In this document: positions 10,372 to 29,397 of the stretch, piece by piece
How positions within the stretch are numbered: the stretch's first letter is position 1
Layout: every line of letters begins with the position of its first letter
Assembly (NCBI GenBank): GCA_965232895.1
Contig: OZ247430.1
Span: forward strand, 40,934 to 104,933
DNA from: Dehalococcoidia bacterium
GTDB taxonomy: Bacteria > Chloroflexota > Dehalococcoidia > Lucifugimonadales > UBA3495
Length of the DNA stretch: 64,000 bases
Reading direction: 5' to 3'
Translations under genes and position numbers: made by a program
Notes under the pieces: generated by a model
Told to the model about the DNA's origin: nothing
Seen by the model: the letters and a program-made list of their open reading frames with translations, nothing else
Database searches by the model: none

Positions 10372-13300
10372 CTATCCGAAGAGCCCGCCGGCATTCTCAA
10401 TTACGCCGTCTATCTCCGACATCTGCGTAATGGTCTCGGCGATGGCCGCCGCCATCCGACGGTAGTGCTCCACGTCGGGATAAGTTGACAAGGCGCGCCG
10501 GCGGCGATCTTTCAGCCACTTGTCCATGGGCTGGTAGCCGCCAATGCGGAAATCCCACACCGCCGGCGCAACGCCGGCAAAATATTGGCTGGTGTTGATA
10601 TAAACGCGGCCGTCATCGTCAGCATCACCGGGCGCGTACTTTGGGTAGCCGGCGGCGACCACGTTGTCGCCGGGAACCGGAAAACCCACCAGTGTAGCGC
10701 TCACGCTCTCGGAGCGCAGCAGATGGGCCTCGACCAAGCGGCGGCCCACGCCGGCCATCTCCCGGAACAAACTAGCGTCGCCCGGCGGCGGCACCCGCGG
10801 GAAGTCGGACCGGAGAAACTGGTCGTAGCGTTCCCGGTACGTCGGCGAGTGGAAGACGGCGTAGATGTAGTGGAACACATCCTCCGGGCCAAAGGTTTCC
10901 TGCAAGTTGCCGGGGCCATCGGGGATGAACGTCAATCCGGTGCGCCGTGCCAAGTCGTCGGTGAACCCCGGCGCAAGATTCGCTTCGCGCTCTCCGTCGG
11001 CATAAAGACCCGAGGCAATTTCTTGATCGGTGGGGTAGAGGTACAGCGGAGCAAATTGCATTATGCCTTTGCTGCTGTAAAAAGCGCGGTTATCGACAAT
11101 CTCTTCATACACACCAAAATGAGAATATTCGTCATTCACTGCTACTTGGCGCATAAAAGCCAAGCCAGTATTTCCGTCTGCTAGTATATGTTGCATTACA
11201 TTTCGGCGGCGTCTGGTGATGAACGAGTCACTGTAATAGGTGTACCTGATGTCAAACGGGCGGTACAGGATCGGAACCACCAAATTCTCGTCCATGTTTT
11301 CATCTGCTGGGAACTCAAAATCACGCGCCGTGTGACTCATTTCATCTGCTGACCAGCGGATGGCCACCTTATCTTGTCCGGTCACAATGCCCGCCGAGTT
11401 CACGGGCATAATATCGGTAATTTTCCGCCATTGCGCGTATTCAGTTTCAAGTTTCTTGTCCCAAGGTTTGAATCGGTAATCTGGAGATTCCGGCTCAACG
11501 GTTTGCCAGTCGGTAGTCAGTAAGTCCGATGTGGACAAGCTGGCGTACTTGGCATCACGAGTGCCCCACAAATCGGCGTGCCTCACCTTCGCCGGCCCTA
11601 GCTTGCCTGCTTCTTTAACGAAGATAGCAATAGCGACACCCTGCTGGATGTCAAAAACATTTTCGTCGACGCTGCCGTCGGGGGCGCTTTCCTTCATTCG
11701 AGAATTGCCATGCAGATCCAACAGGTAGATGTCGGTGAAAGTGTCCAGCAGTTGCTGCCGCATCCCCCGAAAAGTCGGGTTGTCCAGATAACCGTGGTTG
11801 GTGATAAACGCCAGGACACCGGCGCCGGTCTGCTGTATCCGCCACTGAGCGAAGCGGATGAACTTTACGTAATCGTCCTGCAGCCATTTGGGATTGCGCT
11901 CACCCAGCGGCTGCCCGTCAACGGTTTTGTAATCGTTGACCAGGTTGGCTATCCAATCCCCTTTGTTGGCGGAATGGCCGGAGTACGGAGGGTTGCCGAT
12001 GACAACCATGATGGGCAGGTCGCGCTTGACTGCGGCGGCAGCGTTGGCCTCGTCGGTGATGGCGCGCAGCGGACCGAACATAGTCTGCGTTTGCTGTTCC
12101 GCCTGCTCCAGCGAGTTGGTCAGGAACACACCCAGACGTTCGTCGGCGCCGAACTCGTAGGCCCAGGTCGCCTGCTGCTCCGACGGCAGATCCTGCGCCG
12201 CCAACTGCATCCCCAGCTTCAGGTGAGCCATAGCGTAGGGAGCCATCAACAGCTCAAAGCCGAACAGCCGGGGCAACAGGTGCTCTTTGACGTACCCGCT
12301 CCACATCCCGGCGTTGCCGGCATTTTTGAAATGGTCCCGGACGTGATCAATCACGGCATAGAGAAATGATCCGGTGCCACAGGCCGGGTCCAGCACCAGG
12401 ACGCGGTGGGACTTGCCGGTGATGGTCTGGCCGCCGCCGTCAAGGTATTCGTAATCGGCGGTAGCGTTATCGGCCAGCCCGTCGGCGCAGCCGAAACGCT
12501 CCTTGAGCAGACGGTCGACGGAGCGCACGATGTAGGAGATCACCGGCTCCGGGGTGTAATACACGCCGCGCCGCTCCCGCAGGGCCGGGTCATAGGCCGC
12601 CAGGAAGGTTTCGTAGAAGTGCATCACCGGGTCCTGGCGGGCGGCGCGGCTTCCGAAATTGGCGAATACGGCGGCCAGGTCGGCGCCGGCCAGCAGTTGC
12701 GTCAGGTCGTCGACGAAAGAGACGAAGGGCTCGGCGTCAAGGTCGGGGCCGGCCATCATCCCAAAAATCCGGCGGATGAAAGGATTGGCGGCAGGGATCA
12801 AATGGGCGGCGTCGTTGCGGCGAAAATCCCCGGCGCCAGCCTGGCCGGCGTGGTTGAGCCGGGCAGCGAAAAGGCCATAGGCCAAAGTTTGCGCGAACAT
12901 GTCAGCAAAAGTGTCCGTGGCCAGGTCGGGAACCAGAGCCGTCCGGGAAGCGTCGTAAAGATCGCGGATGTTGTCCGAGGCTTCACCGTTCTCAAAGGCA
13001 GCCGCCACCACGTCACGGGTGAGATGCGTCAGCCGCGCCATGCGCAGCGCAAGTTCCTCAGAATTGGCGACAGGTTCAGGTGGACGGTCGAGGAAATCGG
13101 CCAGCAGCAACCCTACGTTCTTGACGCCGTCGGGCTCGTCCAGACTAGCCACACCGCGGCATTGGCCGGCTATGTACTGGCGGAACTCGGTGTAGTTGGT
13201 CAGGATAAGGTTGGGAAGCGCGTTGCGATACCGCTTGAATTGCCGGCCGTTGTCGGTGTCGGGACGCGCCCGGGCGCTTTCCCGGTCAATATCAGCCAGG

Positions 13301-13542
13301 GAAACGCCCGTATCCTTGGCTTCTACGTAGCCAAGGATCAGAGGGTTATCCCCAGCGAGAGTAACGACAAAATCAGGGGCGCCGCATTCGATATGCCTGG
13401 GCTCGTTAACCGCAGTCACTTTGCCGTCTGCTTCCAATAACGCCTGCAGGGCGGGCCGGTGGGTATGCTCGGTGGCGTTGCCCAATTCCAGGCTGGCCTG
13501 GAGCGTCTTGCGATAAGTCGTGAAATCATTGGCGGAAGGCAT
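10372..13542 (-). CDS. Single-chain type IIG/IIL restriction-modification enzyme (PD-(D/E)xK nuclease + N6-adenine MTase + TRD, no helicase)
   Basis: N-terminal GAPDF...YVEAK; motif I VLDPACGTGSFL; motif IV GNPPY; GVYYTPEPV; C-terminal YRPFD and IGGYQPMDKWLKDR. Confidence 0.9.
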   Translation of the reverse strand: MPSANDFTTYRKTLQASLELGNATEHTHRPALQALLEADGKVTAVNEPRHIECGAPDFVVTLAGDNPLILGYVEAKDTGVSLADIDRESARARPDTDNGRQFKRYRNALPNLILTNYTEFRQYIAGQCRGVASLDEPDGVKNVGLLLADFLDRPPEPVANSEELALRMARLTHLTRDVVAAAFENGEASDNIRDLYDASRTALVPDLATDTFADMFAQTLAYGLFAARLNHAGQAGAGDFRRNDAAHLIPAANPFIRRIFGMMAGPDLDAEPFVSFVDDLTQLLAGADLAAVFANFGSRAARQDPVMHFYETFLAAYDPALRERRGVYYTPEPVISYIVRSVDRLLKERFGCADGLADNATADYEYLDGGGQTITGKSHRVLVLDPACGTGSFLYAVIDHVRDHFKNAGNAGMWSGYVKEHLLPRLFGFELLMAPYAMAHLKLGMQLAAQDLPSEQQATWAYEFGADERLGVFLTNSLEQAEQQTQTMFGPLRAITDEANAAAAVKRDLPIMVVIGNPPYSGHSANKGDWIANLVNDYKTVDGQPLGERNPKWLQDDYVKFIRFAQWRIQQTGAGVLAFITNHGYLDNPTFRGMRQQLLDTFTDIYLLDLHGNSRMKESAPDGSVDENVFDIQQGVAIAIFVKEAGKLGPAKVRHADLWGTRDAKYASLSTSDLLTTDWQTVEPESPDYRFKPWDKKLETEYAQWRKITDIMPVNSAGIVTGQDKVAIRWSADEMSHTARDFEFPADENMDENLVVPILYRPFDIRYTYYSDSFITRRRRNVMQHILADGNTGLAFMRQVAVNDEYSHFGVYEEIVDNRAFYSSKGIMQFAPLYLYPTDQEIASGLYADGEREANLAPGFTDDLARRTGLTFIPDGPGNLQETFGPEDVFHYIYAVFHSPTYRERYDQFLRSDFPRVPPPGDASLFREMAGVGRRLVEAHLLRSESVSATLVGFPVPGDNVVAAGYPKYAPGDADDDGRVYINTSQYFAGVAPAVWDFRIGGYQPMDKWLKDRRRRALSTYPDVEHYRRMAAAIAETITQMSEIDGVIENAGGLFG

Positions 13543-13906: not shown

Positions 13907-14006
13907 GTTGACCGAGCGGTTGGGCACGAGGGTCGCTCTCGATTCTGGTACAATCCCGGCTGATGTGCAGGGCATACCGGATGGATAACCATCGCGAGGG
14001 AATGCG

Positions 14007-14657
14007 ATGAACAAACCTTTGAAACTGTGGCTGCTGCTTTGTGCGATGGCGGTGTCAGCGCTGCTGGCGATAGCCGCCTGCGCCCCCGCATCCGATGACG
14101 GCGGGAACGGTATGGCCGGCATGGAGATGGGCTCCATGGCCGCGCCTGAAGACAGCGGCAACCTGAAGATCGGGCAAGCCAGCCCGCCTTTCACCATGAT
14201 GCTGGCGAACGGCTCCGAAGTTTCTTCGCATGACCTGGCGACAAGCGGCCGGCCGGCGCATCTGTTCTGGTTCGCCACCTGGTGACCGGAGTGTCGCGCT
14301 GAGTTGCAGACGCTGAACCCCATCGCCAGCGAGTTTCCGGAAATCGACTTCTACGTCGTTGCCTACAATGAACCCGCGGAGGCGATTGCAGCGTATATCG
14401 AAGAGAACGGTTACACCGACCTGATCGCCGCGCAACCCGTCGGAGCCATGCTGTCCGACCTGGAAATCACGCGCCAGATGGCGATGATGGCGGTGAACGC
14501 CGACGGGGTGATCTACCACCGGCAGTTGATGGGCAGCGCGGACCAGTGGTTGCCACAGTTCACCGAGCTGACCGCCGACCCACACGCCGTACCGACCAAA
14601 ACGGAAGTCAAGAAAGAGCAGGACCGGCGGCTGATGGATCTGCAGCTGCCGGCTTGA
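14007..14657 (+). CDS. Lipoprotein TlpA/redoxin-like selenoprotein 1 (UPEC), in-frame UGA at 14283-14285
   Basis: Lipobox LAIAAC; WFATW-TGA-PECRAEL. The frame stays open with redoxin-like sequence to TGA 14657. Candidate SECIS follows the UGA, and selA is in the window. Confidence 0.85.
14296..14313 (+). promoter_or_regulatory. Candidate bacterial SECIS stem-loop of selenoprotein 1
   Basis: GCG-CTG-agttg-CAG-a-CGC starting 10 nt after the UGA; loop 16 nt from the UGA with G second. Confidence 0.7.
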
Positions 14658-14700
14658 TGACAATAGGCTCCGGCGTCGTTGACGCCGCCGAAGGGAAAGA

Positions 14701-15534
14701 ATGAAAAAGGTTGCAAAATACTGGGCGGGCATCGCGGCCGCCACTCTGCTAGCGGTGGGCCTGGTGGGCTGTGCAGCTGAAGAGCCGGCGACGCCTGCCG
14801 AAGTGGTCTCCGCAGTAGCGACGGAAGCTCCGCCGGCCGCGACCCAGCCATCCGCCGGCGAACCTCAAGCAGTGACTGCGACCTCAGCGCCGCCCGCAAC
14901 TTCGGGAACGACGGCGCCCGCGGCCATCACAGCGCCGACGGAAGCAGCGACAGTTTCCGCTCCGCCGTCGCCCACTGATCCCCCGGCGGTGGCAGCGACG
15001 GCGCCGGCCGCCACCGAATCTGCCACAGCATCCGCTGCGCCTACGGATACACCGGTTTCGGCTCCGCCAACTGCCCCAACCACCACCGAGGCCCCGGCCA
15101 TTGACGTCGGAGCCCAGGTTGGGGAAACCCCGCCGGCGTTCGCAATGGATCTGTCCGACGGGTCGCGGATCGAATCGGCCGACATCGTGGGCAGCGGCAA
15201 GCCGGTGTTCATGATGTACTTCGCCACCTGGTGACCAACCTGCCGCGCCGAGTTACGGACGCTCAGCCCATTGGTAGCAGAACACGCAGGACAGGTTGAC
15301 TTTTACCTGGTCGCTTTCAGCGAGAGCGCGGCAACGCTGGACGAATACGTTGCCGATCACGGATACACCGACATGATCTCCACTCAGCCCGTGGGAACCA
15401 TGCTGGCCGATCTGAAAATCGTCAGCCAGTCGTCAATGATCGCGGTGGACGGCGCGGGCGCGATCACCTTCCGCAAGGGTTACGGAGGCCGGGGCGGCGA
15501 CTTCGGCGCGGAGTTCGCCAAGCTGATTCAGTAG
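14701..15534 (+). CDS. Lipoprotein TlpA/redoxin-like selenoprotein 2 (UPTC), in-frame UGA at 15232-15234
   Basis: Lipobox GLVGC, long Ala/Pro/Thr linker, YFATW-TGA-PTCRAEL. The frame continues to TAG 15534, and the protein is a clear paralogue of the upstream gene. Confidence 0.85.
15245..15262 (+). promoter_or_regulatory. Candidate bacterial SECIS stem-loop of selenoprotein 2
   Basis: GCG-CCG-agtta-CGG-a-CGC at the same offset as in gene 1, with a compensatory T-A to C-G pair. Confidence 0.7.
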
Positions 15535-15558
15535 TAACCCAGAGAAGGTACCGTCGCT

Positions 15559-15606
15559 CTTACGCGCAGACGAACTTACGCGCAGACGAACTTACGCGCA
15601 GACGAA
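15559..15606. repeat. 16-bp tandem repeat x3
   Basis: CTTACGCGCAGACGAA three times, exact. Confidence 0.9.
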
Positions 15607-15657: not shown

Positions 15658-17427
15658 TCATTTGGCGGCAGGTGTTCCTTCGATATCGGCTTGCAGCATC
15701 GAAGTCACCTCGCTCAACGGCAGGGCGCCGTGGTTGTCGCCGTCGCGGGTGCGGACGGCGGCCGCGTTGGCATCGGCCTCGCGGTCACCGACGACCAGCA
15801 TGTAAGGGATCTTCTGCAACTGGGCCTGGCGGATTTTCTGGTTCATGCGCTCGCTGCGGTCGTCGACCTCCACGCGGAAGCCGGCGTCCCGTAACTGCGC
15901 TGCGACTTGCTCCGCGTACTCGTTGTGCCGGTCCGCGATGGGGATCACCGTGGCCTGCACGGGAGCGAGCCACAGCGGAAATGCCCCGGCATAGTGTTCA
16001 ACCAGTACGCCGAAGAACCGCTCCAGCGATCCGAGAATGGCGCGGTGCACCATGTAGGGCCGCGACCGGTTGCCCTGGTCATCCTGGAAAACCAGATCGA
16101 AGCGCTCGGGAAGGTTGAAGTCGAACTGTACCGTGGTGCACTGCCAGTCCCGGCCCAGCGCGTCCTTGATCTTGATATCGATCTTCGGGCCGTAGAACGC
16201 CCCGCCGCCATCGTCTATTCCGTACGGCAGGTCGCGGGATACCAACGCCTGGCGGAGCGACTCGGTCGCGTGGTCCCACATTTCCGGTTCGCCCACGTAC
16301 TTCTCGGGACGAGTGGACAGCATGATGTCGTAGTCCTCGAACCCGAAGGCGGACATGATTTCAAAAGTGAGGTCGAGTACGTCGCCCACCTCGGCCGCGA
16401 CCTGATCGGGAAGGCAGAAGATGTGGGCGTCGTCCTGGGTGAAGCCGCGGACCCGCATGAGGCCGTGGAGGACGCCGCTGCGCTCATAACGGTAAACCGT
16501 GCCCAGCTCGGCGATGCGCAGGGGCAACTCGCGGTAGCTGCGCAGGGCGGAGCGGTAAACCTGGATGTGGAACGGGCAGTTCATCGGCTTCAGGAAATAT
16601 TCCTGCTCGTCGATCTCCATGGGGGCGTACATGCTGTCCCGGTAGAAATCGAGGTGCCCGCTGGTTTGCCACAGCCGCGCTCGTCCAATGTGCGGCGAAT
16701 AGACAATGTTGTAGCCGCGCCGATAGTGGATGTCCCGCCAGTAGTCCTCGATGAGCGAGCGCATGATGCCGCCCTTGGGGTGCCACACGATCAGGCCGGG
16801 TCCGATTTCCTCGTGCACGGTGAACAGATTGAGCTGCCGACCCAGGGTGCGGTGGTCGCGGCGTTCGGCTTCCTCCAGACGCTCCAGATGCGCCTCGAGC
16901 TCCTGCTGCGACTCCCATGCGGTGCCGTAGATGCGCTGGAGCATGGGGCGGTTTTCGTCGCCACGCCAGTACGCGCCGGCCACGTTGAGCAGCTTGACCG
17001 CCGTAATCTCCCCGGTGTTTTCCACGTGAGGTCCCTGGCAGAGATCGGTGAACTCGCCGTGACGATAGATGCTAAGGGTCGTTTCGTCGGGAAGATCGTC
17101 GATGATCTCCTGCTTGTAAGGCTGGGAGTCGAACATGGCCTTGGCAGCATCTCGGCTCAACTCCTCGCGGACGAAGGGCGCGTTGGAACGGATCGTGTCC
17201 AGCATCAGCGTCTCGATGCGCTCCAGGTCTTCGGGCGTGAAGGGCTGGGCCACGTCGAAATCGTAGTAGAACCCGTCGGCAGTGGGCGGCCCGATGCCCA
17301 CCTTTGCCCCTGGAAACAATTGCAGCACCGCATCGGCCATCACGTGGGCCGCCGAATGGCGCATCCGATGCCGCAACGATTCGATAGGATCGTGCACGGC
17401 GTGTTCCGGGGTTCCGTGATCCAGCAT
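15658..17427 (-). CDS. thrS: Threonine--tRNA ligase
   Basis: RHSAAHVMA, DLCQGPH, RDHRTLG, KPMNCPFH, RVRGFTQDDAHIF, HRAILGSLERF. Confidence 0.96.
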   Translation of the reverse strand: MLDHGTPEHAVHDPIESLRHRMRHSAAHVMADAVLQLFPGAKVGIGPPTADGFYYDFDVAQPFTPEDLERIETLMLDTIRSNAPFVREELSRDAAKAMFDSQPYKQEIIDDLPDETTLSIYRHGEFTDLCQGPHVENTGEITAVKLLNVAGAYWRGDENRPMLQRIYGTAWESQQELEAHLERLEEAERRDHRTLGRQLNLFTVHEEIGPGLIVWHPKGGIMRSLIEDYWRDIHYRRGYNIVYSPHIGRARLWQTSGHLDFYRDSMYAPMEIDEQEYFLKPMNCPFHIQVYRSALRSYRELPLRIAELGTVYRYERSGVLHGLMRVRGFTQDDAHIFCLPDQVAAEVGDVLDLTFEIMSAFGFEDYDIMLSTRPEKYVGEPEMWDHATESLRQALVSRDLPYGIDDGGGAFYGPKIDIKIKDALGRDWQCTTVQFDFNLPERFDLVFQDDQGNRSRPYMVHRAILGSLERFFGVLVEHYAGAFPLWLAPVQATVIPIADRHNEYAEQVAAQLRDAGFRVEVDDRSERMNQKIRQAQLQKIPYMLVVGDREADANAAAVRTRDGDNHGALPLSEVTSMLQADIEGTPAAK

Positions 17428-17512: not shown

Positions 17513-17905
17513 CTATATCGCAGACTGAATATCGGTTTGGGCGAAGTCATTGCCTTTGAACAGCAACGGCAGCCGGCGCGCTGACGCCAGGGAATAGGCG
17601 AACGTATCGCCAAAATTGAGTTGCGCCGGGTGGCCTTGACCTTTGCCGTATCGTCGGTAAGCTGCGGCGGCCAACCAAATATGCTCCGCATCCATTGGCA
17701 CAACGCTTACAAAGGAACGCTGTAGGAATTGGCTGGCTAATCCGTAGATGTCTTCGCCCTTTCCAATCGCCACCGTCATCAACTCAATGGCGGTTCCGAC
17801 GGACACGAGGATCTCGCCGTCCTGCTCCATAGCCGCCAGAAAATCGGGAGCGTCCGACTCGTTGGTGATTACCGACACTATTGCCGAGGTGTCGGCAACC
17901 ATCAC
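17513..17905 (-). CDS. vapC: VapC PIN-domain toxin
   Basis: MMVADTSAIV...ELMTV...YGKGQGHPAQLNFGDTFAYSLA. Confidence 0.9.
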   Translation of the reverse strand: MMVADTSAIVSVITNESDAPDFLAAMEQDGEILVSVGTAIELMTVAIGKGEDIYGLASQFLQRSFVSVVPMDAEHIWLAAAAYRRYGKGQGHPAQLNFGDTFAYSLASARRLPLLFKGNDFAQTDIQSAI

Positions 17906-18192
17906 TTTGGCAACCCCCGATCATCGTAGAGTTCCTCTTGCCAGACTCTAGACGGAGGGTTGTCGTCGTCAAAGGGGTGTTCTGCCCGCCAGCGCCGGGC
18001 AGCGGCGACGATTGGCATCATTTCAGCAGCGATTTCCGCCGGGGAGGGTTTGCCGCTCCGGGGTAATTTCGCCTCTAGCGCCTCTACCGCCACTTTGAGT
18101 GCGCGTTCCGGCCCGTCCGGGCCAGTAAAACCCATTTGATGAGCCAAATTCGCCAGCCTCGATTCCATTTCCGCTGTTAGCATGATATCCAT
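17902..18192 (-). CDS. Probable VapB antitoxin
   Basis: 96 aa, 4-bp overlap with vapC, ends ELYDDRGLPK as in Rv0623-like VapB. Confidence 0.8.
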   Translation of the reverse strand: MDIMLTAEMESRLANLAHQMGFTGPDGPERALKVAVEALEAKLPRSGKPSPAEIAAEMMPIVAAARRWRAEHPFDDDNPPSRVWQEELYDDRGLPK

Positions 18193-28014: not shown

Positions 28015-29397
28015 ATGACAATCGGTTCCGAACTTCGCAACCTCCCCAGCGTCGAGCGCGTGGTGAACGGTGATGCGCTCTCCTGCGCCGTGGCCGCGCA
28101 CGGACGTGAGATGGTGGTGGAACTGACCCGGGAAGTGCTGGACGGAGCCCGGAAGCGCGTATTGTCCGGCGGGGCCGCGCCGGCCGGGGACGAGATCGCC
28201 GAGGCCGTTCTTTCCCTGGTGGCCGAGCTGACCGAGCCGTCGCCTCGCCCGGTTATCAACGCGACCGGGGTCGTCATTCACACCAATCTGGGTCGTGCGC
28301 CTTTGAGCGACGCCGCTCTGGCCGCAGCCGATGCCGTGGCCCGGGGATACTCCGACCTGGAAATCGACCTCGGAACCGGACGACGCGGGTCGCGCCAGGC
28401 ACACCTGCAATCGCTGTTGCAGCGTATCACCGGAGCCGAAGCGGCACTGGCCGTGAACAACAACGCGTCGGCCCTGTTGCTGGGCTTGTCGGCTCTGGCG
28501 TCCGGCCGCGAGGTAATTGTTTCCAGGGGCGAAGCGGTCGAGATTGGCGGTGGGTTCCGCATACCCGACGTCTTGCGGCAAAGCGGTTGCACGCTCGTTG
28601 ACGTGGGAACCACAAACCGGACCTACGCGCGGGACTACGCCGAGGCCATGAGTGAGCAGACCGGAGCCTTTCTCAAAGCTCACGCCAGCAACTTCAGGGT
28701 GGAGGGTTTCACCGCGTTCGTCGCAGAGCGTGACCTCGTGGCGCTGGGCGAGACCTCCGGTGTCCCCGTGTTGCATGACGTCGGGAGCGGAGCGTTGCTG
28801 CCTACCGAGCGGTACGGATTGGCCCACGAGCCAACTCCACAGGAAAGCGTCGCCGCGGGTGTCGGGCTGGTGTTTTTCTCGGGTGACAAGCTGTTGGGCG
28901 GCCCGCAAGCCGGGATCGTAGTCGGCAAACGGGACCTGGTAACACAGTTGGAGCGACATCCGCTGGCGCGGGCGGTCCGGATCGACAAGATGAGCCTCGC
29001 CAGTTTGACGGCAACGTTGGCGCATTATGTGACGGGCGAAGCGGAAACCAGGGTGCCCGTGTGGCGAATGATTTCGGCGACCGCCGATGACGTGCGGTCT
29101 CGGGCGCAACAATGGCGCGCCATCTTGAGCGACAACCTGGTGGAAGCTTGTGTCGAGCCGGCTCGGTCAGCGATCGGAGGCGGGAGCCTGCCCGGCGAAA
29201 CATTGCCGTCGTGGACGCTGACGATCAATGCCCCGCCGGATCGGTCGCCGGAAGCGGTATTATCCGCGCTCCGCGGGCAATCGACCCCGGTGATCGCCAG
29301 GATCGAAGAGGCCGCGGTTCGCCTGGATCCCAGGACCGTGCTGCCGGAGCAGGACGACGCCGTGATTCAGGCCCTCACGGCGGTGATGGCCAGGTAA
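28015..29397 (+). CDS. selA: L-seryl-tRNA(Sec) selenium transferase
   Basis: VINATGVVIHTNLGRAPL, GYSDLEIDL, SRGEAVEIGGGFRIPDV, FSGDKLLGGPQAG. Confidence 0.96.
   Translation: MTIGSELRNLPSVERVVNGDALSCAVAAHGREMVVELTREVLDGARKRVLSGGAAPAGDEIAEAVLSLVAELTEPSPRPVINATGVVIHTNLGRAPLSDAALAAADAVARGYSDLEIDLGTGRRGSRQAHLQSLLQRITGAEAALAVNNNASALLLGLSALASGREVIVSRGEAVEIGGGFRIPDVLRQSGCTLVDVGTTNRTYARDYAEAMSEQTGAFLKAHASNFRVEGFTAFVAERDLVALGETSGVPVLHDVGSGALLPTERYGLAHEPTPQESVAAGVGLVFFSGDKLLGGPQAGIVVGKRDLVTQLERHPLARAVRIDKMSLASLTATLAHYVTGEAETRVPVWRMISATADDVRSRAQQWRAILSDNLVEACVEPARSAIGGGSLPGETLPSWTLTINAPPDRSPEAVLSALRGQSTPVIARIEEAAVRLDPRTVLPEQDDAVIQALTAVMAR

Follow-up and report, generated by a model that had tools for sequence, protein, structure and literature searches.

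The SECIS of E. coli fdhF carries a GGUC tetraloop, a bulged U on the 5' side and a lower helix that includes the UGA. Its minimal form, reportedly established in the work of Liu et al. 1998, Huttenhofer & Bock, and Fourmy et al., is a 17-nt upper stem-loop located 11 nt from the UGA. Within this stem-loop, the loop nucleotides G23/U24 and the bulged U17 are said, in the same body of work, to be contacted by SelB.

A description of bacterial elements in general is provided by the bSECIS model (Zhang & Gladyshev 2005; bSECISearch), for which PMC13188914 Fig. 2 gives a summary. According to this model, the apical loop comprises 3-9 nt and the upper stem 4-16 bp, with a minimum free energy (MFE) of -7.5 kcal/mol or lower (PMC13188914). 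A G is among the first two loop nucleotides, and the nucleotide after it is usually G or U; the distance from the UGA to the loop is 16-37 nt (PMC13188914). Thiol-disulfide isomerase-like proteins (TlpA-like, cd02966) with a UxxC motif are a listed prokaryotic selenoprotein family (PMC13188914), and BSepDB records 46 and 49 selenoproteins in MAGs of Dehalococcoidia (PMC13326102).

The mechanism considered here is therefore not new: the protein family, the machinery and the richness of Dehalococcoidia in selenoproteins have all been described before (PMC13188914, PMC13326102). A literature search returned no paper specifically on SAR202 SECIS elements. The hairpins described below are almost certainly a well-documented new example of the known mechanism, and this assignment is very well supported by sequence comparison.

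The tandem gene pair and its hairpins

The window, i.e., the whole stretch of 64,000 nucleotides that was analysed, belongs to the genome of a marine SAR202 bacterium (the host), which has 4.28 Mb and 63% G+C. Its closest public relatives are SAR202/Dehalococcoidia MAGs from sponge and seawater. Translation of TGA as U merged split ORFs and gave two tandem genes on the + strand (Table 1). Both proteins match Pfam AhpC-TSA and Redoxin above the cut-offs, with matches that span the UGA (residues 55-175 in gene 1), and both carry the redox motif FATW-U-PxC. Their sequence identity within the domain is 45%. Each translation begins with a signal peptide whose end is a lipobox, LAIAAC in gene 1 and LVGC in gene 2, and gene 2 additionally encodes a long linker rich in Ala, Pro and Thr.

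The pair resembles the cd02966 family in its thioredoxin-fold Redoxin/AhpC-TSA domain, in the UxxC at the CxxC position and in the existence of Cys-form homologues; the domain evidence for the pair is that of Pfam. It differs from the family as described in being an anciently duplicated tandem lipoprotein pair, present in ~45 SAR202 genomes, with the linker in gene 2. The host also resembles the Dehalococcoidia of BSepDB, as it belongs to the same class and has a large selenoproteome dominated by thiol oxidoreductases, with ~20 genes confirmed here. A search for homologous proteins returned four truncated fragments alone, of 118-199 aa, because gene callers stop at the UGA. Homologues were therefore collected by searches at the DNA level.

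Table 1. Coordinates of the gene pair, its recoding features and selA within the window
Feature	Position	Strand	Description
Gene 1	14007..14657	+	TlpA/redoxin-like lipoprotein selenoprotein, 216 aa, FATW-U-PEC; stop TGA 14655-14657
Gene 1 in-frame UGA (Sec codon)	14283..14285	+	First Cys position of the CxxC motif
Spacer 1	14286..14295	+	10 nt between UGA and hairpin; codons Pro-Glu-Cys + 1 nt
Hairpin 1	14296..14313	+	GCGCUG 14296-14301, loop AGUUG 14302-14306, CAG 14307-14309, bulged A 14310, CGC 14311-14313
Gene 2	14701..15534	+	Paralogous TlpA/redoxin-like lipoprotein selenoprotein, 277 aa, FATW-U-PTC
Gene 2 in-frame UGA (Sec codon)	15232..15234	+	TGA in 44/44 gene 2 orthologues
Hairpin 2	15245..15262	+	GCGCCG 15245-15250, loop AGUUA 15251-15255, CGG 15256-15258, bulged A 15259, CGC 15260-15262
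selA (selenocysteine synthase)	28033..29379	+	TIGR00474, 542 bits (cut-off 268); G000:C1:68966-70312; ~13 kb downstream, in the window

The two hairpins lie exactly where a preliminary description of this DNA, made from the sequence alone, had placed them. Their common form is GCGCYG-AGUUR-CRG-A-CGC. The spacer is 10 nt long in both genes, and the apical loop begins 16 nt after the UGA. One base pair distinguishes the two stems, U14300-A14308 in gene 1 versus C15249-G15257 in gene 2. On the 5' side the change from GCT to GCC is synonymous, and on the 3' side the change from CAG to CGG replaces Gln with Arg. Synonymous sites of the spacer vary freely in the orthologues (CCN, GAR, TGY), and due to this lack of constraint a conserved lower helix including the UGA was ruled out.

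In relation to the bSECIS model, the hairpins agree in lying within the coding sequence, directly 3' of the UGA, and in having a 5-nt loop with G at position 2 followed by U. The spacing of 16 nt, found in every homologue, is at the extreme short end of the 16-37 nt range. The stem in this clade consists of 3 bp, a 1-nt 3' bulge and a further 3 bp, which corresponds to 6 bp only if the bulge is allowed. The energies, -5.2 and -6.5 kcal/mol for the hairpin by itself and, when flanks are included, -6.6 and -7.9 kcal/mol, are borderline against the threshold of -7.5 kcal/mol. In the model N1 and N2 often pair, whereas loop positions 1 and 5 of the present hairpins (A and R) cannot. The similarity to the fdhF element includes the length of ~17-18 nt, the spacing of ~10-11 nt, the G-U at loop positions 2-3 and a single bulged nucleotide in the stem. 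However, the hairpins here have an AGUUN pentaloop, their bulge is on the 3' side, and the UGA is not surrounded by a conserved lower helix. By sequence they are not of the fdhF class, although they would work like the fdhF SECIS.

Single-sequence folding gave z-scores from -0.0 to -1.4, which is no better than chance, and consequently thermodynamics alone cannot support the hairpin. The minimum-energy folds of the local sequences have energies of -10.3 kcal/mol for gene 1 and -9.2 kcal/mol for gene 2. For gene 2, that fold is the hairpin itself. In gene 1, the fold is a different structure, more stable in the host genome than the hairpin, and it needs a TGT codon that is absent from most orthologues. 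Rfam searches at gathering and permissive thresholds returned no relevant family, with only chance-level matches in 14000-15600.

Conservation among orthologues

Two scans of a genome collection yielded an orthologue set from ~45 SAR202/Dehalococcoidia genomes, with 88 unique segments of 345 nt. The set was gathered partly with peptide patterns, including CRAEL[RQ]TL, and is consequently biased in favour of conserved peptides, though not of conservation at synonymous sites; in addition, the sequence counts given below are not counts of independent events. All of the ~45 SAR202 genomes contain both genes, in tandem, with TGA at the same position, and the Sec codon of gene 1 is TGA in 44/44 orthologues.

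Across the 88 unique sequences, the third positions of codons +4, +6, +8 and +9, counted from the UGA, are at least 99% invariant, while the median of the third-position maximum frequency over 115 codons is 0.57. No other third position of a degenerate codon near the motif is as constant; those that reach 97% or more are -29 and the non-degenerate -1 (TGG) and 0 (TGA). Outside the hairpin, Ala -3, Pro +1 and Leu +10 are equally invariant as residues and use 3-4 codons each. The codons that are fixed within the hairpin are rare in the host genome, where GCT accounts for 8%, TTG+TTA (TTR) for 13% and ACG for 28%.

RNAalifold applied to 76 distinct sequences returned exactly the proposed hairpin structure, with 99.6% of the alignment cells paired. 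At the variable pair, 45 sequences have C-G and 31 have U-A, with zero mismatches or wobbles. None of 500 shuffles reached this level of pairing, and sliding the 3' partner along the alignment destroys it. When the U-A/C-G state was mapped on a gene tree built without the hairpin columns, at least two independent switches were found. One of them splits gene 1 from gene 2; the other occurred inside the gene-1 clade and comprises 8 genomes, which also have the replacement of Gln by Arg. Taken at the level of sequence, these patterns show that the hairpin is under purifying selection as RNA.

The preliminary description had regarded the double change between the two genes as one that preserves pairing and costs an amino-acid substitution. 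The pairing-preserving change with its Gln/Arg replacement is real and recurs independently. However, the notion of a cost is overstated, as Gln and Arg are both widespread at this position and a wobble intermediate would stay paired. The step from CAG to CGG would pass through a U.G pair, and the amino-acid replacement may thus have been the earlier of the two changes.

Distant homologues and cysteine forms

A class-wide six-frame search, performed without the bias of peptide patterns, retrieved homologues from other Dehalococcoidia orders that are 28-39% identical, nearly all with a single in-frame TGA. The UGA is kept in more than 100 sequences, and conservation of the coding type is observed on both of its sides. 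Every unique UGA form (107/107) has a pentaloop at +16 closed by at least 6 bp, the loop being AGUUG, AGUUA, AGUUC, AGUUU or AGGCU.

In these homologues the stem has been rebuilt in several ways. In the form GGUCYG/CRGACC, Ala is replaced by Ser, whose codon supplies a U as the pairing partner of the formerly bulged A; the result is a perfect stem of 6-7 bp. Thr is changed to Asn in GUUCCG/CGGAAC, and the bulge is absent from GCGCUG/CAGCGC. A further form, AACGCCG.../...CGG-A-CGUU, involves the change of Arg to Asn and of Leu CTN to TTA. In sister clades the stem contains 6-8 continuous bp. The residue changes that track the pairing are Ala/Ser, Thr/Asn/Ser, Arg/Asn and Gln/Arg. Among 98 distinct sequences, five of the six pairs have double changes and 97.8% of the cells are paired. 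The covariation score of 0.257 compares with 0.098 for shuffles (0/500 as high); both this score and the paired fraction come from an alignment that was fitted to a covariance model, which by itself favours the structure.

A phylum-wide search, again free of peptide-pattern bias, added three UGA forms and ~20 Cys forms with the motif W-C-xPC-R-x-E-M-P. The three UGA forms have the hairpin GAGCCG-AGUUU-CGGCUC, also with at least 6 bp and the loop at +16. The Cys forms serve as controls. When the UGA forms are aligned with ~20 Chloroflexota homologues and with the host's own Cys paralogue, W-U-PxC-R-x-E corresponds to W-C-xPC-R-x-E. The Cys forms have TGY at the position of the UGA, which corresponds to the catalytic Cys of those homologues, and the ones that share the RAE motif encode it with other codons. 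At the equivalent position, 21 of ~22 Cys forms have 0-4 bp, including L091 and the host's own Cys paralogue. The exception, L125, is a close relative of the UGA forms and retains 6 bp, and in its sister L121 the pairing has been lost by a synonymous change from CGG to CGA. Such a pattern would be expected after a recent replacement of Sec by Cys.

Together, these sequences make up a natural data set on a single bacterial SECIS that is unusually clean. The distinct sequences number more than 100; compensatory changes arose independently several times, a shift of register takes up the bulge, and the Cys forms provide matched controls. The set also illustrates how an RNA signal within the reading frame constrains the protein sequence beside a redox active site.

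Selenocysteine machinery and other selenoprotein genes of the host

In addition to the selA gene of Table 1, the host genome encodes SelB (353 bits), with the GTPase, beta-barrel, SelB-wing_2 and SelB-wing_3 domains, and a SelD that itself contains Sec. A tRNA-Sec gene was also found. TGA is the commonest ordinary stop codon, terminating 459 of 1162 long ORFs, and it follows that the genetic code has not been reassigned.

Other selenoprotein genes were sought by a codon-usage scan for read-through ORFs combined with Pfam domains spanning the UGA. The resulting list is likely incomplete, and SelD obtains a low score in the scan owing to its N-terminal UGA. At least 17 additional genes for selenoproteins were obtained, with ~20 confirmed in the genome overall. 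They include Trx_8+NHL, GrdB-like, Peripla_BP_2 and CMD/AhpD genes, five genes of the UGSC family and two DUF3179 genes, as well as two AhpC/TSA genes, DsbA, another TlpA-like gene, a rhodanese and a deiodinase-like gene.

Similar hairpins are indeed found after the UGA of other selenoprotein genes. Of the 19 genes tabulated, 8 have a hairpin that starts exactly 10 nt after the UGA. At this spacing, the AGUUG loop is present in a TlpA-like gene (C1:3887411) and in an AhpC-like gene (C1:3974242). The deiodinase-like, Peripla_BP_2, CMD and rhodanese genes have the loops AGUCG, AGGUC, GGUUC and CGGCG, respectively. The UGSC genes have GUG/AGUGU loops at +18-19 and the DUF3179 genes CGUGU loops. 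The preliminary description had also named selD and fdh as places to look for a similar hairpin, and neither provided one. In SelD the loop is a GGC triloop at a distance of 27 nt from the UGA, and all three Fdh-alpha homologues in the genome are Cys-type and hence offer no Sec comparison. Rules for recognising hairpins in this lineage must consequently permit several loops, namely NGUNN loops between +16 and +20 and GGC loops at +17 or +27.

A further proposal was that the hairpin defines a lineage-specific SECIS that can be used to find other selenoproteins. Lineage specificity was not supported: the spacing, the loop size and the G-U in the loop belong to the general bacterial consensus (PMC13188914), and the genome uses several loop classes. 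Its use as a finder was confirmed only in part. Perfect 6-bp hairpins with an AGUYR loop occur 40 times genome-wide, and four of them have a TGA exactly 10 nt upstream, compared with 0-2 at every other UGA spacing from 6 to 15 nt. Three of these four TGAs are in-frame Sec codons of further selenoprotein genes. On the other hand, this loose descriptor misses most of the other ~14 selenoprotein genes as well as SelD. A covariance model of the hairpin does not serve to find selenoproteins in general, since over the host genome it returned significant matches for its two query genes only; the deiodinase-like gene was ranked fifth (E=0.35). Exact and loose sequence searches of the genome likewise recovered the full motif in these two genes only. 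Two candidates were discarded: a hairpin look-alike on contig C2, located outside any coding frame, and the candidate selenoprotein C2:129192, which is an IstB/IS21 gene with a stop.

Proposed mechanism and rival explanations

With high confidence, each hairpin can be regarded as the canonical bacterial-type SECIS of its gene. The suggestion of a SECIS-type hairpin in the preliminary description is thus upheld: the element fits the published bacterial model, it is conserved as RNA, it is tied to the UGA forms, and the machinery is complete. According to the proposed mechanism, the 18-nt stem-loop located 10 nt downstream of the UGA would be positioned at the mRNA entrance of the ribosome once that codon occupies the A site. 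The winged-helix domain at the C-terminus of SelB would bind the apical loop A-G-U-U-R, with its G-U at positions 2-3. Sec-tRNA(Sec) would then be delivered by SelB, and the UGA would be read as selenocysteine. The binding of SelB and the actual insertion of Sec at both UGAs are inferred. The Sec residue would occupy the first position of UxxC in two exported TlpA-like thiol-disulfide oxidoreductases. The codons of Arg-Ala-Glu-Leu-(Gln/Arg)-Thr would serve the protein and the RNA together, and because the signal is located inside the reading frame, synonymous sites would be frozen and some amino-acid changes coupled to the pairing.

The fact that gene callers split both genes, and that the search for homologous proteins gave short fragments alone, is what would be expected if the UGAs were true stops or were read in a way not involving Sec, as in split genes, pseudogenes or near-cognate readthrough. 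This explanation is extremely improbable. Pfam domains cross the UGA, the codon is aligned with the catalytic Cys of the Cys-form homologues, and over 100 sequences retain it between flanks that are conserved as coding sequence; the Sec machinery of the genome is complete. The two split gene calls are thereby confirmed as single selenoprotein genes. It is just as hard to credit that the hairpins have no RNA function and that their identity results from protein and codon constraints or from gene conversion between the tandem paralogues. The peptide CRAEL(Q/R)TL is itself highly conserved and the two genes adjoin, both of which would suit such an origin. However, equally invariant residues outside the hairpin use 3-4 codons, whereas the hairpin is frozen on rare ones. 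Changes are pairwise compensatory, up to and including the stem rebuilds in distant homologues. The Cys forms encode the same RAE motif with other codons, and gene conversion cannot produce conservation across ~45 genomes within each orthologue group.

An explanation that grants the conservation of the RNA would assign it a different function, for example in ribosome pausing, in mRNA stability or in regulating the tandem pair, with the Sec signal located elsewhere or not needed. The unusually short and bulged stem of this clade speaks in its favour. Nevertheless, it is very unlikely, if slightly less so than the two explanations above. No other segment downstream of the UGA has synonymous-site conservation, while the position, the loop size and the G-U content of the hairpin fit the SECIS model. 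Moreover, equivalent hairpins with an identical spacing are present in selenoprotein genes of the genome that are not homologous to the pair, and the hairpin is missing from 21 of ~22 Cys forms.

A possible compact class of SECIS

Beyond the assignment of the hairpins as SECIS elements, it is possible, although doubtful, that SelB of SAR202/Dehalococcoidia prefers a compact SECIS, with an AGUUN pentaloop, a fixed distance of 16 nt, a stem as short as 6 bp and no need for the bulge. If such a class exists, the peptide R-A/S-E-L/F-Q/R-T that follows UxxC would partly be an imprint of the RNA signal, and the pairing would steer the replacements Ala/Ser, Thr/Asn/Ser, Arg/Asn and Gln/Arg. A descriptor of this compact class could sharpen the prediction of selenoproteins in Chloroflexota, for which general bSECIS models are noisy.

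The 3' bulge is probably not a recognition element; its dispensability is suggested by the sister clades, in which it is turned into a base pair. Among the orthologues, the bulged base is A or U and rarely C. In one orthologue (L079), pair 2 of the stem is flipped from C-G to G-C.

Selenocysteine machinery and further selenoproteins

The gene for selenocysteine synthase, selA, is found within the same window as both selenoprotein genes, approximately 13 kb downstream of the pair. SelD, which is encoded outside the window, itself contains selenocysteine, in the sequence LSHCAG-U-AAKLS. Its putative SECIS consists of a GGC triloop on an 8-bp stem, 27 nt past the UGA, and belongs to a class separate from the hairpins of genes 1 and 2.

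At least 17 additional selenoprotein genes, in which the UGA is spanned by Pfam domains, are located elsewhere in the genome, outside the window. These comprise UGSC-family (n = 5), DUF3179 (n = 2), and AhpC/TSA (n = 2) genes, as well as one each of Trx_8+NHL, GrdB-like, Peripla_BP_2, CMD/AhpD, DsbA, TlpA-like, rhodanese, and deiodinase-like genes. Compared with the remaining families, DUF3179 and Peripla_BP_2 may be less familiar in a Sec form. All three Fdh-alpha homologues of the genome are Cys-type.

Naive read-through scans are inflated by a repeated element present in about 15 copies on C1, among which the context of the in-frame TGA is identical (ADTGFHRAKSPPLA before it, TGGDPANVKICRRG after it). 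Rather than a selenoprotein gene, it probably represents a multi-copy IS whose ORFs adjoin or overlap.

Features of the window and of genome contig C1
Feature	Numbering	Position	Strand	Match
Large ORF	window	10372-13541	-	
16-nt repeat, three copies	window	15549-15596		
Threonyl-tRNA synthetase ORF	window	~15660-17427	-	
Two small ORFs	window	17513-18192	-	
selA	window	28033-29379	+	TIGR00474, 542 bits
SelD	C1	2589113		
Further selenoprotein genes (UGA)	C1	891923, 2900757, 836558, 3626345, 3302446, 3625436, 1804496, 4082813, 2320926, 3257625, 2297157, 3974242, 3677170, 3887411, 1934089, 929467, 2943586		
Repeated element (examples)	C1	399619, 719337, 1390350, 1720956		

Cys-form relatives

Two loci from other Chloroflexota classes, L125 and L121, are Cys forms related to the UGA-form genes and share the motif FATW-C-TxC-RAEFRLL. 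In L125, the hairpin is intact despite the Cys (6 bp, AGUUU loop), while in L121 the pairing has been lost through a synonymous change, CGG to CGA. The two loci look like snapshots of a SECIS decaying once Sec has been replaced by Cys.

Neighbouring features

Directly upstream of the gene pair lies an ORF of about 1050 aa with an NPPY-type motif (VIGNPPYSGHS), which, judged by eye, looks like a candidate N6-adenine DNA methyltransferase or type IIG restriction-modification enzyme. Gene 2 and the threonyl-tRNA synthetase gene converge on a short intergenic region, in which the 16-nt unit CTTACGCGCAGACGAA is repeated head-to-tail. Two overlapping ORFs of 130 and 104 aa resemble, in their arrangement, a candidate PIN-toxin/antitoxin pair.
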